Virus record (IMG/VR): IMGVR_UViG_3300031754_000001
Span: 75,584-139,583 of that record
Reading direction: 5' to 3' (one strand)
Length of the DNA: 64,000 nucleotides
DNA from: a virus
This document shows, piece by piece, positions 14,842 to 64,000 of the stretch. The stretch's first letter is position 1, and each line of letters starts with the position of its first letter. The notes under the pieces are model-generated. The model was given only the letters and a program-made list of their open reading frames with translations, did no database searches and was not told where the DNA came from. The position numbers and the translations under genes were made by a program.

Positions 14842-15729
14842 CTACGACGCCAGGAGTTCCGTGCCGGTCCCGTCGCAGCCGCCCGCAAGCCCGGGAACGG
14901 TCTCGCCCGCGAGCGCGAACCCGGCCGCGGACAGCTGATCGCGGACCTCGGCCAGCGACGCCGGGCCGAAATTCCGGATGCGCCGGAGCGATTCCGCGTC
15001 GTGGGAGATCAGCTCCCCGATCGTGCGGATGCTGCCGGCGCCAGGCCGGCTGTCCGCGGAGAGGTCGCCCCGGAGCAGGGCGTTGTGCGTGCGGACGGTC
15101 AGGTCCAGCTCCCCGATCTCGTCGTCCCCGGTCAGGTCGCAGATCGGGGCGATCTCCTCTTCGTCCGCCTCGGCCGGGCGGGCGGCGACGGCCTCGGCGA
15201 TCGCGCCGCCGAGCACTTCGTCATCCGCGCCGGAGACCATCAGCTCGTACGCGTCCCTCAGCGGCCGGGAGTAGTACACGCGGCCGGACACCGGGTTCTT
15301 GTACCGGATGCCGTGCTCCCGGGCGAAAATCCGCAGGTCCCTGTTGTAATCCAGGCGGCTGCGGCGGGCGTTCTCGTTCTCGTGCGGGGGCAGCGGGGGA
15401 CCGCCGGGGAGCAGGTCACGCGGCGTGCACGGGTCACCCGGGCGGCTCAGCGCCGCGCAGTAGGCGCGCACGGTGCGGGCCTTCGGCTTGCGCCCGCCTG
15501 GCTGGGCTCCCGTCTCGTTCTTGGCGATGGCGTCCCGGCTGACGGTCAGCGGGGAGCCGTCGTCGTCCGTCAGGTTCAGCGCGGTGATCGCGTCCGCGAG
15601 ATCCTGGCGGGACCAGCCGCGGCTTTCCCGCCACCAGGTCAGCCGGTCAGGATCGATGGCGATGCCTGATACCGGCCGCTTCGGGGGCGCAGGCCGCTGC
15701 TCCTGCCTTTCCTGCGTCATGGCTGACAT
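14842..15729 (-). CDS. XRE-HTH + Lsr2-like DNA-binding domain + RNA polymerase alpha-CTD fusion regulator
   Basis: HTH RESRGWSRQDLA..SRDAIAKNETG; LRIFAREHGI..SGRV...AY; IGELDLTVRTHNAL..IRTIGELI..LRRIRNFGPASLAEV. Confidence 0.8.
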   Translation of the reverse strand: MSAMTQERQEQRPAPPKRPVSGIAIDPDRLTWWRESRGWSRQDLADAITALNLTDDDGSPLTVSRDAIAKNETGAQPGGRKPKARTVRAYCAALSRPGDPCTPRDLLPGGPPLPPHENENARRSRLDYNRDLRIFAREHGIRYKNPVSGRVYYSRPLRDAYELMVSGADDEVLGGAIAEAVAARPAEADEEEIAPICDLTGDDEIGELDLTVRTHNALLRGDLSADSRPGAGSIRTIGELISHDAESLRRIRNFGPASLAEVRDQLSAAGFALAGETVPGLAGGCDGTGTELLAS

Positions 15730-27794: not shown

Positions 27795-28009
27795 CGGCCG
27801 GCGAGGAGGCACGCGATGCCGCGCGCGAGAAGCCCGGGTAGGCGGGCCGGGACCTGCAGCCACTGCCAATGGCGATCGATCACATTCCCGGCAGGTCCCG
27901 GCCGCCAGACAGACCGGGGTACCTTTCTCCCCCCGCGAGTGAACGTGTCGGGCGCTTACACGATACCCCGCGGGCTCGCCGGCTACTCCTGCCAGACCCA
28001 GGGGGACAG

Positions 28010-28504
28010 ATGAACAGCACGGAAATCAGCGGCACGTCATGCCCGCAGTGCGATGACGGCAACTGGAACGACCTTGGCTGCATGACGTGCGGCCTGGAAT
28101 TCTTCCCGCCGTCCGAGGCGTACCAGGCTGCGGTACCGGTAAGCCTGCGCATAAAACGACTTCGCGCAAGCTGGGCTCCGGCTCCGCGCCTGACCCCGGC
28201 TGAAGACTGTTTCTGGGGGGCTTGTCTCGCCCGGGGTTACCCGTGGACTGACGATGTACTGCCGCAGGCTCGCATCGGTGCCTACCGGGCGGATTTCCTG
28301 CTAGCCGGAGCCAGGATCGTTATCGAGATCGATGGCTTCAGCAATCACGCGAAAACCGCTGACATCACGCGCGACCGGCAGCGGCAGCGCTGGCTGCAAG
28401 GTCAGGGCTATCAGGTCATCCGGTTCAGTAACACCGAAATCCAGCAGGCCCCGGAACGATGCGCGGCTGAAACTGACGCGCTGATTCGCGGGATGCTGTC
28501 ATGA
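28010..28504 (+). CDS. DUF559/Vsr-like endonuclease
   Basis: TPAE..., Q.RIG.YRADF, IVIEIDG..H...D..R..WL..GY.VIRFSN. Confidence 0.85.
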   Translation: MNSTEISGTSCPQCDDGNWNDLGCMTCGLEFFPPSEAYQAAVPVSLRIKRLRASWAPAPRLTPAEDCFWGACLARGYPWTDDVLPQARIGAYRADFLLAGARIVIEIDGFSNHAKTADITRDRQRQRWLQGQGYQVIRFSNTEIQQAPERCAAETDALIRGMLS

Positions 28505-31500
28505 ACGCCCAGGTCCGGCAGGACGCGCCGGTCTACGCGTCGGCCTGCGCGGATTACTACCTGGCCGGGTGGACGTGCGTGATCCCGGTGCCGCCGGAAG
28601 CCAAGTTCCCTCCGCCCGGCGGGTTCACCGGGGCTGGCGGCCGGGACACCACCCCAGAGGACATCGCCGGCTGGGCGGAGCAGCTGCCCGGTTACTCGAT
28701 CGCGCTACGGATGCCGGACGGCGTGATCGGCATCGACGTCGATGAGTACGCCAAGGGCGAGACCGTCAAGCATGGCGCCGCGACCGTAACCGGGGCCGAG
28801 GGGGAATGGGGCGCGCTGCCGCCGACATGCTCATCGACTGCCCGCGGCCAGGATCAGCCGAGCCGCATCCTGTTCTACCGGGTGCCGGCCGGCCGGTACG
28901 CCAGCCAGCTCGGCCCGGATGTCGAGATCATCCAGCGGCATCACCGCTACGCCGTGGTCGCGCCGTCGCCGCACTCCGCTACCGGGACGCCGTATCAGTG
29001 GTACGGCCCGGACGGTTCCCCCCTGGGCGGGAAAGTCCCGGGACCGGGAGAACTGGCCGCTCTGCCGGAAGCGTGGATCCAGGGCCTGGCCGAGGGCGCC
29101 GCGGCAGCCAGCCCGATGGCAGCCAGTATCGGCGAGGCCGGGCAGCTGCTGGCCTGGCTGGAGGCTGAGACCGGGCAGGTGTGCACCGACATGGCGCACG
29201 CGACGGCGGCGATCCTGGCCGAGACCACGGCCGCGCACCCCGGCTCCCGGCATGACCTGATGACCAGGGGCATCTACGAGCTGGTCCAGCTGACCGCCGA
29301 GGGCCACGGCGGTTACGGCACGGTCATCGCCCAGCTGCGCGGGCTATGGGGCGAGCTGACCGCCGGGGAAGACCGGGACGCCGAGTTCGGCGACATGATC
29401 ACCACCGCGGCGCGCAAGGCCGTCACTGCCCACGGCCCGGTCCCGCAGGCAGCCGATCCGTGCCGGGTGTTCGGCCGCGGGCTGCCCCGGTTCGCCGCGC
29501 CCGCACCGGACGTGCCGCCGGGTGCGGGCCTAGATGATGACGAGCTGCCGCCGCCCGAGGCGCCGAGGTTCTGGTCGCCGTGGGGAGAAGACGGGATCGG
29601 CGTGCTGCCATTCGACCCGCCCGCCGGGCTGGACGGGATGCTGGCCCGCGACGTGCTGGGCCGTACCTGGCCGGTACTGCGGTACGCCCCGGACGCGGGC
29701 GCGTGGATCAGGCGCGGCCCGGACAAGTGGGACGTGATCAAGGGCGACTTGTCCAAATGGGCTGTCGACCTGGTGAGCGTGCTCATGCCGCCCGGTGACC
29801 CGGACGCCGCCCAGGGCAGCCCGGAACGGCTTCAGGCTGACCGGCGCAAGCGGTTCATGTCGAACTCCCCGGCCAACGCGATCGCCGGGAAGATGAACGC
29901 GCAGGTCGCCGCCGGGCAGCACCCGTCCGCAGTGGAACTGGCCGCGCTGGACACTGACCGGGAGATCCTGTGGGCCGGGGGCATGCCGTTCGACCTGCGG
30001 AACTCCGACGAGGCTCCGGCGATCTCGCGGTGGACCGACCCGGGCACCCCGCACCTGCACAGCGCGGGCGTGGTCCCGGAGCTGCGCCCCGTGCCGCGAT
30101 GGGACGCGTTCCTGGCCGCGGTCTGGCCGGACGAGGACGTGCGGGCCTGGGCACTGCGCATCCTGTCGATCTCGTTCACCGGCTACCCGGACAAGGCGCT
30201 GCCCATCCTGCTCGGCGACACCGACCGCGGTAAGACCTCGCTGATCATGCTGCTGATGTCCGTGCTGGGCAGTTACGCCCACGTGGCCGATGCCCGGCTG
30301 CTCGCCCCGGCTGACAAGTCACACGCCTCGATCGTGTACGCGCTGCGGGGCCGGCGGCTGTCGTTCATCGATGAGGCACCGCGCACCGGTCAGCTGGCTA
30401 CTGAACGGCTGAAGCAGATCACGGGCGGCGCGGACCTGACCGGCAACCGGATGGGCGAGAACCCCATCACGTTCCCCACCACTCACACGCTGATCCTGAC
30501 CGCCAACCCCGAGCACGAGCCGGTGCTGACCGACGCGGCCATTCGCCGCCGGGTCCGGCTGATCCCGTGCAACGGCGATCCCGCCGCGGTCATCGCGGCC
30601 AGGGCGGCGATCGGCGCGGAGCACGGTGCCGCGTGGCGGGCCGAGGCACCCGGCGTGCTGGCCCGGATGATGGCCGAGACAGCCCGCTGGCTGGCTGACC
30701 CGCACAGCTCCGGCAACGAGTCCGCGCCGGAAGCAGCGGCCCTGGCGGCGAGTGAGATCATGGCGAGCCAGGACCTCACGCTGCAGTGGCTGCGCGAGGA
30801 ATGCGAGGATTTCGAGCGCGGCACCAGGAGCCGTGATCTCTACCTGGCGTTCACGGAGAGTTGCCGGCGGATGGCGGTGAACCCGGCTACGATGCCGTCC
30901 GAAACACGGTGGGGACGGAGGCTGACCGAACTCGGCTACCCCCCATATAAGCGGACGGACGCCAACTACCGGACCCTCCGGATCAAGCCCCCGCAGGTTT
31001 TCATGCCCGGACCAGCGGCACTGAGCGGTCAGAGCGGCGGTTCCGCCCGGCCGCATGGAGGGTCTGAGCCTGAAAATGGAGGGTTCATGGAGGGTTCGGG
31101 GTCAGGGCCTCAACCCTCCATGAACGGAAACACAGCAGGTCAAACCCTCCATGAAACCATCCATATGGAGGGTATGGAGGGTCAGTCAACGTATATAGCA
31201 CACACACACGCGCGCACACGCGCGCACACGCAGGGGGGTAAAGACCAAACCCTCCATACCCTCCAACCTTCCATACCGCCCCCGGCGGACCCCCCCGCAG
31301 CGGAAAACCCCGGTTCGTCACCGGGCGTGACATCACCGGATGCCGCCAGGGCGGGCAAGCCCCGCAAGGCAGCCAGGCCCAGGGCCGTGAAGGTGCGGCC
31401 GGACCCGGTGCTGGAAGGCCCGGTGTACCAGCTGCCGGTCATCGTGGCGCGGAATCCGGACGGCGGCGAGCCGCTGGTGCTGTCGTGCTCGCCGGACGAC

Positions 31501-33288
31501 GCGAGGGCGGCGGCAGAGGGCGCGCTGGCCGGCATGCACGTGGACTGCGAGACCTCGGGGTACCCGCCTGGTCACGCGGATTTCGCGTTGCGTACCGTCC
31601 AGCTGGGTGATGAGCAGATGGCGGCGGTACTGGACCCGGCTGATCCGGAACAGGCGGCGGCAGTCACGGATCTGGTGGCGCGGGCGCGGGTACTGCACGC
31701 GCATTCGGCGGCGGCTGACCTGGTGCCGCTCGCCGCAGCCGGGCTCGGCGACGCCGAGGCGATGTGGGCGAAGATGACCGATTCGGTGCTGATCGCCAAG
31801 CTGGCCGATCCGTCGCTGGCCGGGTCGGATGAGAACGAGCTGAAAAAGCTGGCCCGCGATCTGCTGGGAGGCTATGCGGTCAGCCCTCCTGCGGAGAAGG
31901 CCCGCAGCGCCCTGTTCAAGTCCGGTGGCTGGCTGACCGATACCACGGCGCTGACCCCGCCGGAGAAATCCGGATGGGGCCAGGTCAAGTCCGGTTGCGA
32001 GGTCATGGCCCGGTACGCCGGGTCCGACGTGCTGGACCTGGCCGCGGTGCTGCGCGTGCTGCCGGAGCCCGACCAGGCCGTGCTGGCGCGCGAGCGCGAG
32101 TTCCAGCGGATGTGCGCCCGGGTGAGCCATGCCGGGTTCCGGCTGGACCCGGTGCACATCCGGGCCAAGATCGCCGAGTACACCGCAGCCCGCGAAGCTG
32201 CCCGCGAGCTGGTGGCCGGCCTGTGCCCGGATATCACCAACCCGTCCTCCACCAAGGACGTCCCGGCCGCCCTGCTGGGCATGGGCATCCCGCTCGGCCG
32301 CACGAAGGACGGCAACCCGAGCGCCGCCAAGGCCGTGCTGGAGCCGCTGGCGGCCGACGAGAGCTATGAGCATCACGAATTGCTGCGCGGCATCCTGGAC
32401 TACCGGCATGACGTGACCACGCTCGGGCTGCTGCTGGAGCCCCTGGGAAGGCTGTGCGAGCACGGCGACGGCCGGATGCGCCCGGTGGTCTACACGATCA
32501 ACGCCGACACCGGCCGGACCAGCTGCGTCCGTCCCAACGGGCAGCAGTTCTCCCGGCAGGGCGGCATCCGCGCGTGCGTCATCGCGGATGAGGGCATGGC
32601 CGGAGTCTCGGCTGACTTCTCTGGCGTGGAGATCCGGGTCGGCGCCGCGCTGTCCGGTGACAGGGACCTGCTCGCCGCGGAGCTGTCCACGTACTGCCTG
32701 GCGTGCGCGTCCGATCCGTGTGCCTGCGGGCAGGGCCAGACCGGGCTGCACTGGATGGCCGCGCGGATGGCGTTCGGCGCGGGCGCCACCAAGGAAGACC
32801 GTTACAACTCCAAGCGGATCATCTTCTCCAAGATGTTCGGCGGCGGCCCGAAGTCCGGTGCGGCCCAGGTGGGCGTGCCGGTGGAGGCGGCGTACGCGGT
32901 GCACAGCGCGTTCGAGCAGATCGCGCCTGCGTTCACCGAGTGGGATAAGCAGATGCGCGCCTACGCGGAGGCCGGCAACCGCGGTTTCCGGGCATATTCC
33001 GGCCGGGTCATCTGGCTGCCGCGCGGGCGCAGTCACGCGGCCGGCAATTACGCGATCCAGGGCTCGGCCCGGGAGCTGCTGGTGGACGGGTGCCTGCGCT
33101 GGCACCGGACCCGCTGGGGCCATCTGCCGCTGCTGCCGATCCATGACGAGATCCTGGTATGGGTTCCGGCTGAGGAGGCGCTGGAGGCCCGGGAGACGCT
33201 GAAGGCGTGCATGGCCGGCGAGCTGTACGGCGTGCCGATCGAGGCCAAGGCCGACGAGCCGTTCCTGGCCTGGCCGGATTCTTCGTGA
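28501..33288 (+). CDS. Prim-Pol primase / SF3 (D5-like) helicase / family A DNA polymerase fusion
   Basis: IGIDVD..VVAPS.H; Walker A GDTDRGKTS, Walker B FIDE, motif C LTAN; ExoI VDCETSG, ExoIII YAGSD; PolA DFSGVEIR, R.NSK.IIF..FG, IHDEI. Confidence 0.92.
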   Translation: MNAQVRQDAPVYASACADYYLAGWTCVIPVPPEAKFPPPGGFTGAGGRDTTPEDIAGWAEQLPGYSIALRMPDGVIGIDVDEYAKGETVKHGAATVTGAEGEWGALPPTCSSTARGQDQPSRILFYRVPAGRYASQLGPDVEIIQRHHRYAVVAPSPHSATGTPYQWYGPDGSPLGGKVPGPGELAALPEAWIQGLAEGAAAASPMAASIGEAGQLLAWLEAETGQVCTDMAHATAAILAETTAAHPGSRHDLMTRGIYELVQLTAEGHGGYGTVIAQLRGLWGELTAGEDRDAEFGDMITTAARKAVTAHGPVPQAADPCRVFGRGLPRFAAPAPDVPPGAGLDDDELPPPEAPRFWSPWGEDGIGVLPFDPPAGLDGMLARDVLGRTWPVLRYAPDAGAWIRRGPDKWDVIKGDLSKWAVDLVSVLMPPGDPDAAQGSPERLQADRRKRFMSNSPANAIAGKMNAQVAAGQHPSAVELAALDTDREILWAGGMPFDLRNSDEAPAISRWTDPGTPHLHSAGVVPELRPVPRWDAFLAAVWPDEDVRAWALRILSISFTGYPDKALPILLGDTDRGKTSLIMLLMSVLGSYAHVADARLLAPADKSHASIVYALRGRRLSFIDEAPRTGQLATERLKQITGGADLTGNRMGENPITFPTTHTLILTANPEHEPVLTDAAIRRRVRLIPCNGDPAAVIAARAAIGAEHGAAWRAEAPGVLARMMAETARWLADPHSSGNESAPEAAALAASEIMASQDLTLQWLREECEDFERGTRSRDLYLAFTESCRRMAVNPATMPSETRWGRRLTELGYPPYKRTDANYRTLRIKPPQVFMPGPAALSGQSGGSARPHGGSEPENGGFMEGSGSGPQPSMNGNTAGQTLHETIHMEGMEGQSTYIAHTHARTRAHTQGGKDQTLHTLQPSIPPPADPPAAENPGSSPGVTSPDAARAGKPRKAARPRAVKVRPDPVLEGPVYQLPVIVARNPDGGEPLVLSCSPDDARAAAEGALAGMHVDCETSGYPPGHADFALRTVQLGDEQMAAVLDPADPEQAAAVTDLVARARVLHAHSAAADLVPLAAAGLGDAEAMWAKMTDSVLIAKLADPSLAGSDENELKKLARDLLGGYAVSPPAEKARSALFKSGGWLTDTTALTPPEKSGWGQVKSGCEVMARYAGSDVLDLAAVLRVLPEPDQAVLAREREFQRMCARVSHAGFRLDPVHIRAKIAEYTAAREAARELVAGLCPDITNPSSTKDVPAALLGMGIPLGRTKDGNPSAAKAVLEPLAADESYEHHELLRGILDYRHDVTTLGLLLEPLGRLCEHGDGRMRPVVYTINADTGRTSCVRPNGQQFSRQGGIRACVIADEGMAGVSADFSGVEIRVGAALSGDRDLLAAELSTYCLACASDPCACGQGQTGLHWMAARMAFGAGATKEDRYNSKRIIFSKMFGGGPKSGAAQVGVPVEAAYAVHSAFEQIAPAFTEWDKQMRAYAEAGNRGFRAYSGRVIWLPRGRSHAAGNYAIQGSARELLVDGCLRWHRTRWGHLPLLPIHDEILVWVPAEEALEARETLKACMAGELYGVPIEAKADEPFLAWPDSS
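31055..31274. repeat. iteron array, putative replication origin inside the replicase gene
   Basis: About 11 copies of ATGGAGGGT/ACCCTCCAT in both orientations around GTATATAG and CA/CG repeats. Confidence 0.75.
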
Positions 33289-63902: not shown

Positions 63903-64000
63903 GGCCTGGTGGCTCGGCCTGGTGGCTCGGCCTGGTGGCTCGGCCTGGTGGCTCGGCCTGGTGGCTCGGCCTGGTGGCTCGGCCTGGTGGCTCGGCCTGG
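63903..64000. repeat. 13-bp tandem repeat GGCCTGGTGGCTC (7.5 copies, runs off the window)
   Basis: Direct reading; copies identical, no spacers. Confidence 0.95.

Follow-up and report, generated by a model that had tools for sequence, protein, structure and literature searches.

The DNA considered here is a window of 64,000 nucleotides, namely the right-hand 64 kb of the 139,583-bp IMG/VR virus record IMGVR_UViG_3300031754_000001 (linear, ~69% G+C). Its gene at 28501-33288 encodes a single chain of 1595 amino acids (aa), in which a Prim-Pol primase, an SF3 helicase, a 3'-5' exonuclease and a family A DNA polymerase (PolA) are joined. As judged from sequence comparison and a predicted model of the helicase, this gene is probably the replicase of an actinobacterial soil phage which carries its own iteron origin in the codons of the linker between helicase and exonuclease, translated in frame. 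We suppose that the linker-coding DNA acts as the replication origin of the phage, and that the enzyme works as the full-length chain.

Under the proposed mechanism, the C-terminal wing of the helicase would read the linker-coding iterons in the replicase's own gene, and hexamers may load on their own at both sides of the spacer, by analogy with the Rep proteins of the SaPI elements (Staphylococcus aureus pathogenicity islands). To go by the domains, Prim-Pol would lay the first primers and the tethered proofreading PolA would extend them. Transcription and translation would both pass through the origin, kept free of stop codons; passage of transcription through it can be likened to the situation of lambda ori, which lies inside gene O and is activated by transcription. 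A bolder proposal, which we consider a serious possibility and put forward tentatively, is that this one gene represents a complete portable "replicon" comprising initiator, helicase, primase, proofreading polymerase and origin, with a recognition code of residues 817 and 822 versus iteron bases 7 and 6.

The iteron array in the linker codons

The features of the gene and of the array, in window coordinates, are the following.

28501..33288, plus strand: replicase open reading frame, 1595 aa, ATG to TGA, one open frame
28552..29067, plus strand: AEP Prim-Pol domain, residues 18-189 (Pfam PF09250, 73.6 bits, E 3e-20)
30088..30732, plus strand: SF3 (D5-like) helicase ATPase core, residues 530-744 (Pfam, PDB sequences, alignment and fold)
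30733..30987, plus strand: helicase C-terminal domain, residues 745-829 (helices and a beta-hairpin "wing" in the predicted model)
30988..31416, plus strand: linker-coding stretch, residues 830-972 (~143 aa, protein unconserved in the alignment)
31054..31277, no strand assigned: iteron array, repeats ATGGAGGGT/ACCCTCCAT in both orientations
31055, 31076, 31087, 31165 and 31174, plus strand: exact copies of ATGGAGGGT
31113, 31144 and 31249: exact copies of ACCCTCCAT, the complement of ATGGAGGGT
31156, 31258 and 31266: one-mismatch copies of the complement ACCCTCCAT
31135..31142, plus strand: oriented box GCAGGTCA, pattern [GC]CAG[GC]TCA
31183..31248, no strand assigned: spacer of 66 nt between perfect 17-nt inverted arms at 31166-31182 and 31249-31265
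31534..32070, plus strand: 3'-5' exonuclease domain, residues 1012-1190 (PHROGs, invariant residues)
32092..33258, plus strand: family A polymerase domain, residues 1198-1586 (Pfam, PDB sequences; motifs A, B and C intact)

Two features by which an iteron origin may be recognised were found in the linker-coding DNA: a cluster of short repeats that occurs nowhere else in the record, all eight exact copies of the 9-mer being confined to 203 bp, and opposed repeat sets flanking a spacer of relatively low GC content. In the array, a direct set is followed by inverted copies and a tandem pair, and beyond the 66-nt spacer by an inverted tandem pair. Within the spacer are TATATAGC and an alternating purine–pyrimidine tract, (CA)n/(CG)n; GC content falls to 0.52-0.55 in 100-nt windows, and at 0.50-0.55 the spacer is the 100-bp window with the least GC in the 16.8-kb locus. 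It is a candidate unwinding element. The G+C content of third codon positions is 0.55 in codons 852-926, 0.65 across the linker (830-972) and 0.89 in both flanks. The original prediction was right that a linker is present, although its length is ~143 aa instead of roughly 130, and in treating it as a mere linker it missed the origin-like iteron array in the coding DNA. A candidate second iteron site at window 61-62 kb, comparable to the crr of P4, was rejected, since the one-mismatch copies there have no extended consensus in common.

To follow the array outside this phage, related loci were retrieved with an alignment as the query (60 viral and 25 genome loci), whereas a single-protein query gave none. 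The locus counts given below rest on 48 loci with distinct linkers in which both halves of the protein could be placed. When each locus of 7-18 kb was scanned without bias for the 300-bp window richest in repeats, this window overlapped the ~450-bp linker in 41 of the 48; after the merging of near-duplicates, 39 of 46 top windows fell on the linker against 3.6 expected (binomial tail 1.5e-22). The top 10-mer had no copy elsewhere in its locus in 42/48 cases and occurred in both orientations in 46/48, while the lowest-GC 100-bp window of the locus fell in the linker in 31/48.

The iteron copies are evenly distributed over the three frames, as 66/76/63 in one orientation and 93/68/91 in the other, and at least three combinations of frame and orientation are used in all 44 loci with a clear iteron. 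Therefore, the repeat is selected as DNA and not as peptide. The layout is conserved among the loci: after the direct set come an inverted copy, the oriented box and a tandem pair, and beyond the spacer an inverted tandem pair. The [GC]CAG[GC]TCA box stands on the coding strand at a fixed place in 30 of the 44 related linkers. The iteron core differs between lineages: CCCTCCA (AACCCTCCA) is found in 11 loci, that is the query phage and 10 others, CCCGTCA (AACCCGTCA) in 21, CCCTTCA (AACCCTTCA) and CCCTGCA (AACCCTGCA) in three each, and rarer forms in the rest. A constant layout combined with a lineage-specific core is the pattern expected of initiator-binding sites.

The replicase chain and its relatives

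The original prediction described one uninterrupted 1595-aa reading frame with primase, Walker, 3'-5' exonuclease and PolA motifs, and this description agrees with the frame call, with Pfam, PHROGs and PDB matches and with an alignment of 25 full-length relatives, in which the residues below were compared. The score of PF09250 is above its curated Pfam cut-off (22.8 bits); D79/D81 and H147/H148 of this domain are invariant in 25/25 sequences, and the motif III candidate D171 is the majority residue only. By sequence, the domain is a predicted primase-polymerase with intact catalytic residues. Walker A (G577-K578-T579), Walker B (D624-E625), the asparagine of motif C (N669) and an arginine finger (R684/R686) are all present in the helicase, invariant or nearly so, and DUF5906, the P-loop of D5-like helicases, matches residues 572-678 (E 6e-7). 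The exonuclease residues D1015/E1017 (Exo I), D1073 (Exo II) and Y1172/D1176 (Exo III) are invariant, as are D1372/E1377/R1379, R1434/K1438/F1442 and H1548-D1549-E1550 of the polymerase. Pfam DNA_pol_A matches residues 1241-1583 with 113.9 bits against a cut-off of 34.3 (E 1e-32); DNA_pol_A_exo1 did not reach the E 0.01 threshold in the replicase, and the same profile matches relatives. PHROGs assigned residues 8-824 to the DNA primase phrog_1156 (E 1e-94) and residues 1012-1586 to the DNA polymerase phrog_17 (E 9e-73), and the PDB sequence matches were Taq/Klenow over 1198-1583 (E 1e-16) and the primase C962R of African swine fever virus (ASFV) over 538-686.

The predicted model of residues 520-832 (mean predicted local distance difference test score, pLDDT, 87.3) has the D5-like SF3 fold, including its C-terminal domain. 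It matches the ASFV PrimPol (8ww7) end to end with Z 23.1 and a root mean square deviation (rmsd) of 2.9 A over 297 residues, and residues 455-765 of PriRep5 from SaPI5 (7ola) with Z 20.9 and rmsd 3.5 A over 277 residues at ~15% identity. These PriRep5 residues include its C-terminal domain, and the alignment reaches the end of the model. For 8xj7, Z was 19.8; the matches span model residues 1-313 or 1-238. The last element of the model is a beta-hairpin with strands at 815-816 and 822-828, and we suppose that the C-terminal domain (745-829) binds the iterons.

Covariation between protein and repeat is consistent with such binding. Across the five main iteron classes (39 of 46 sequences; protein columns 520-832), the best-covarying column was 822, where a T at iteron base 6 goes with N and a G with K (normalised mutual information, nMI, 0.71). 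The second was column 817, where K/R goes with C/G and H with T at base 7 (nMI 0.62). Both columns lie within the predicted wing hairpin, and the CCCTTCA class, having N822 and H817, agrees with the rule. On average, the normalised information amounts to 0.245 for residues 745-832 as compared with 0.119 for the ATPase core. As a sign of recognition these data are suggestive and do not represent a proof, because relatives inherit both traits by shared descent.

Of 7999 candidates scored in a word-index protein search, 314 were relatives at E <= 0.001. Among the matches listed, the query excluded, 115/119 have a length of at least 1500 aa, and one local alignment covers at least 95% in 99/119. 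The source names of these relatives include Micromonospora, Nocardioides, Jatrophihabitans, Prauserella and Labedaea, and there are two kinds of carrier: phage contigs that, like the present record, have a length of 110-210 kb, and phages or prophages of 37-47 kb in isolate genomes. The frame from helicase to exonuclease is open in 47 of the 48 loci, the exception being L019, where 2.6 kb separates the halves; in-frame fusions occur in isolate genomes of Micromonospora, Nocardioides, Kribbella and Labedaea, among others. Linker length varies (336-654 nt in most loci), and the coding frame is stop-free across it in 47/47 loci, the other two frames in 1/47 and 0/47, while ~1.3 open loci are predicted from shuffled linkers. 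Since nearly all loci are fused and only the coding frame is kept open, the sequences show the primase–helicase–exonuclease–polymerase fusion to be real, old and under selection. To call it "unusual", as was done originally, is too strong in view of the length of the listed relatives, the number of fused loci and the triple fusions and AEP-PolA fusions already published.

Among cultured phages the fusion was not found: tblastn against 50,697 phage records gave 2402 records with partial matches, none of which reached 80% cover, and when window 20000-44000 was compared with cultured phages by megablast, no match resulted. In cultured Streptomyces phages, e.g. Attoomi, primase and PolA are encoded by adjacent separate genes.

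Several variants of the gene deserve mention. Relatives of 1856-2005 aa have in-frame insertions of ~0.6-1.0 kb within the polymerase domain (L002:10293-11308, L003:10611-11386, L051:10002-10711, L058:9999-10585). They lie at conserved motifs (query residues ~1434-1442, 1519 and 1346) and are very likely inteins; the replicase gene at 28501-33288 has no such intein-like insertion. In a subgroup (L025, L029, L031, L033, L035, L039, L047, L060) the match starts only at residue 337-371. The two members that were scanned, L025 and L033, gave no Prim-Pol Pfam match at the N-terminus and keep D5_N, DUF5906, exonuclease, PolA and the iteron linker, so the N-terminal module of this subgroup may differ. 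Two identical replicase loci, L074 and L075, stand 46.9 kb apart on one 101,680-bp contig of a Nocardioides metagenome-assembled genome, probably a ~47-kb phage genome assembled as a concatemer.

Alternative readings and genome context

Some of the results weigh against an origin in the linker. The top repeat window lies elsewhere in 7/48 loci, including the two closest relatives L001 and L002, in which the array is nonetheless visible when drawn, and 4-5 loci have no clear iteron. The spacer is only relatively AT-rich and falls outside the 15 lowest-GC 200-bp windows of the record. The cumulative GC-skew minimum is at window 22-24 kb, i.e., 7-9 kb upstream of the array, the skew being weak and the record incomplete. 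Completeness of the record is estimated at 66%, and the missing part could hold another origin or polymerase. The covariation, for which 39/46 sequences were used, is confounded by shared descent, and the CCCTGCA class departs from the rule at residue 822. No iteron array is present in the 96-bp gap between primase and PolA of Attoomi; for the same reason this gap was ruled out as an unfused ancestor of the origin.

The full-length chain may be a precursor, with the working primase-helicase and exonuclease-polymerase separated through proteolysis or an internal start. This is compatible with an origin in the linker, and the single-polypeptide replisome would then not exist as such. It would explain why the linker is unconserved and variable in length, and it recalls the neighbouring separate genes of the Streptomyces phages. 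Three of the five plus-strand iteron copies supply in-frame ATGs; two of these, M863 and M892, are closely preceded by GGAGG, and an internal start could be used there. In addition, it had been argued in the original prediction that a hexamer would bear six polymerases; in D5-type enzymes, however, a hexamer normally has six primases tethered to it. Neither a conserved cleavage site nor a conserved internal start was found in the alignment and the drawn linkers; the iterons of relatives lack the Shine-Dalgarno/ATG pair, so the internal start is not a conserved feature. The linker frame is strictly open in all 47 loci, which argues that read-through translation matters. We regard a precursor as possible but doubtful.

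A regulatory element is a less probable explanation, and we consider it unlikely. The array could represent an operator cluster, either for a phage repressor or for autoregulation of the replicase, or else hairpins slowing the ribosome; in the latter variant, mRNA or DNA hairpins would determine how much of the primase-helicase half is made relative to the full-length chain. An operator or a translational attenuator would likewise yield clustered inverted repeats, which also counts against our preferred reading. As single-stranded DNA the inverted copies form two long hairpins (-64 kcal/mol, z -7.66), and the in-frame ATGs with their GGAGG, as well as the position of the GC-skew minimum away from the array, would be in line with regulation. 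However, there is no stop codon to release a truncated product, and the iterons of relatives differ and lack the Shine-Dalgarno/ATG pair. The layout, with opposed sets and a low-GC spacer just after the DNA-binding domain of an initiator-helicase, fits iteron origins, and the residues that covary belong to the wing of the replicase itself.

An artefact, whether through faulty assembly, a frameshift error or the pseudo-fusion of adjacent genes, is the weakest alternative and very improbable: the inverted repeats and the dinucleotide tract of the linker can trouble assemblers, and frame changes occur elsewhere in the gene in L001 and L076, but a second assembler gave an identical sequence and 47/48 loci from many samples and isolate genomes are fused in frame. 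The sequence in question is a 30.5-kb Logan contig, which matches 30600-31800 with 0 differences and 0 gaps and has no stop or frameshift over 31.0-31.4 kb, the region for which the original prediction had asked for read support; it comes from the sole public run holding this DNA (no RNA run is listed as a holder), probably the source sample, and thus represents an independent assembler and not independent data. The frame change of L001 (the closest relative, 78% identity, 210-kb contig) is near residue 1190, between exonuclease and polymerase (L001:9567-9605), and that of L076, an Actinophytocola genome copy, near residue 1085 (L076:9333-9338); both could be sequencing errors, decay or recoding.

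An origin in the linker codons remains our preferred reading, and its genome setting is that of a tailed phage: the record encodes a portal, an S78 protease, an HK97-type capsid, a connector and a 1967-aa tape measure. The replicase belongs to a rightward module with a PD-(D/E)XK exonuclease, an SNF2 helicase, a DUF559 endonuclease, DUF1643, an endolysin-like protein and an HNH endonuclease. The stop codon of the DUF559 gene upstream and the start codon of the replicase overlap (ATGA). This DUF559/Vsr-like gene, at window 27869-28504 on the plus strand, may encode a homing-type nuclease coupled to the replicase. A Pfam scan of the record, which is ~66% complete, gave no match for a second PolA, PolB, Pol III alpha, DnaB or single-strand binding protein.

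Other observations on the record are given for completeness. Its end (window 63908-64000) consists of at least seven tandem copies of the 13-nt unit GGTGGCTCGGCCT, where assembly probably broke. The 9-mer GGTCGGAAG has seven copies, all on the plus strand, and its complement was never seen; they are at window 45266, 51176, 59991, 61258, 61313 and 62192 and at G000:C1:64788, mostly between leftward genes, so this may be a promoter, operator or terminator-associated motif. An adenylosuccinate synthetase homologue (G000:C1:2532-3782, plus strand, Pfam E 8e-59) has cellular PurA as its best PDB sequence matches, and nothing points to PurZ of 2-aminoadenine genomes. A Ro60/TROVE and vWA protein is encoded at G000:C1:30580-32235 (minus strand), and a 295-aa protein with a segment resembling the C-terminal domain of the RNA polymerase alpha subunit (Pfam E 1.6e-10) at window 14842-15729 (minus strand). 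There are two apparent inteins: in a glycosyltransferase with a LAGLIDADG domain (G000:C1:26370-28577, plus strand) and in a 668-aa protein with Hint/intein-splicing domains (G000:C1:55579-57585, plus strand).

Comparison with known systems

If the proposed organisation is correct, a gene of ~4.8 kb would hold all that is needed for its own replication save nucleotides and perhaps a single-strand binding protein, and among phages with double-stranded DNA this would be roughly the most compact arrangement of a DNA replicon that is known. The same bases would serve as origin and as translated linker, stop-free in 47/47 lineages, and the pairing of winged domain with iterons would offer a testable recognition code. 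The family would then comprise one-gene replication systems that are orthogonal to each other and suited to high-GC bacteria, and would be a starting point for orthogonal replication in Streptomyces-like hosts. For annotation, it would be a warning that "disordered linkers" of replication proteins can be DNA elements.

A chain with a similar list of activities is the apicoplast PREX, which joins primase, helicase, exonuclease and PolA. PREX has a TOPRIM primase and a different helicase class, and belongs to a eukaryotic organelle. The replicase gave no Pfam match for a TOPRIM primase or a Twinkle-type helicase, its primase being Prim-Pol and its helicase SF3 by the predicted fold, and the PREX polymerase part matches it weakly (E 1e-3, PDB sequences). 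The original prediction thus appears justified in calling the two analogous only. The nearest structures are those of the ASFV C962R PrimPol, the poxvirus D5/E5 and NrS-1, which share the combination of AEP with a D5-type SF3 helicase and represent the best structural matches (Z from 23.1 down to 18); the titles of their structure entries name hexamers and double hexamers. To our knowledge, none of them has a fused PolA or a known origin inside its own gene.

Lambda ori codes for an inter-domain link of the O protein. The available text of PMC5043065 describes it as lying within gene O and activated by transcription, and so the likeness to the replicase consists in an iteron origin inside an initiator coding sequence, transcribed through. 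The difference is that O is small and contains no helicase, primase or polymerase, recruiting the host DnaB via P; O and the replicase are unrelated in sequence and fold.

The SaPI elements provide a close parallel for the array. According to the available text of Qiao et al. (2022, PMC9371898), the Rep proteins of SaPI are initiator-helicases that load themselves, and the SaPI ori consists of opposed iterons around an AT-rich centre right after rep, bound by the C-terminal winged helix of Rep. PriRep5 of SaPI5, as far as this text goes, resembles the replicase in its primase and SF3-type helicase, in its C-terminal winged domain (predicted in our case) and in opposed iterons directly after the helicase-coding part. 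In the same account, however, the SaPI ori is downstream of the stop codon, whereas our array is translated in frame, and the SaPI iterons are of 5-6 bp as compared to 9-10 bp. Besides, the replicase chain adds exonuclease and PolA, which SaPI draws from the host or helper.

Published fusions form a further line of comparison. Two triple fusions are described in the available text of Kazlauskas, Krupovic and Venclovas (2016, PMC4889955): Pas55 of the Actinoplanes phage phiAsp2 (SF3 helicase, DnaG-type primase and PolA) and gp55 of the Lactococcus phage 1706 (SF3, AEP and PolB). Neither has the combination of AEP, SF3 and PolA, and that text describes no linker origin for either. Pas55 is, like the replicase, an actinophage triple fusion ending in PolA; it has DUF3854 (Toprim-like) where the replicase has Prim-Pol, and the two match in the polymerase only (31% over 280 residues). 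The available text of Czernecki et al. (2023, PMC10201439) describes viral helicase–PolA polyproteins, as well as fusions of AEP with the "Hot Spring 1" PolA (cluster 8), which occur in Verrucomicrobia, Planctomycetota and Nitrospirae. These fusions are similar to ours in their N-terminal AEP and family A polymerase, and their exonuclease is active; they differ in belonging to other phyla and probably to another cluster of PolA. That text makes no mention of the actinobacterial family ("Micromonospora" occurs 0 times), and the available text of the review of actinomycete elements by te Poele (2008, PMC2440964) mentions only Prim-pol proteins without helicase or PolA.

Literature searches gave no description of this family or of a linker origin, with the reservation that the supplements of PMC4889955 and PMC10201439 could name members. 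The kinds of components used by the replicase are thus known from other systems; the actinobacterial family combining AEP, SF3 and exonuclease/PolA, together with its proposed in-frame linker origin, appears to be a new variant of these.

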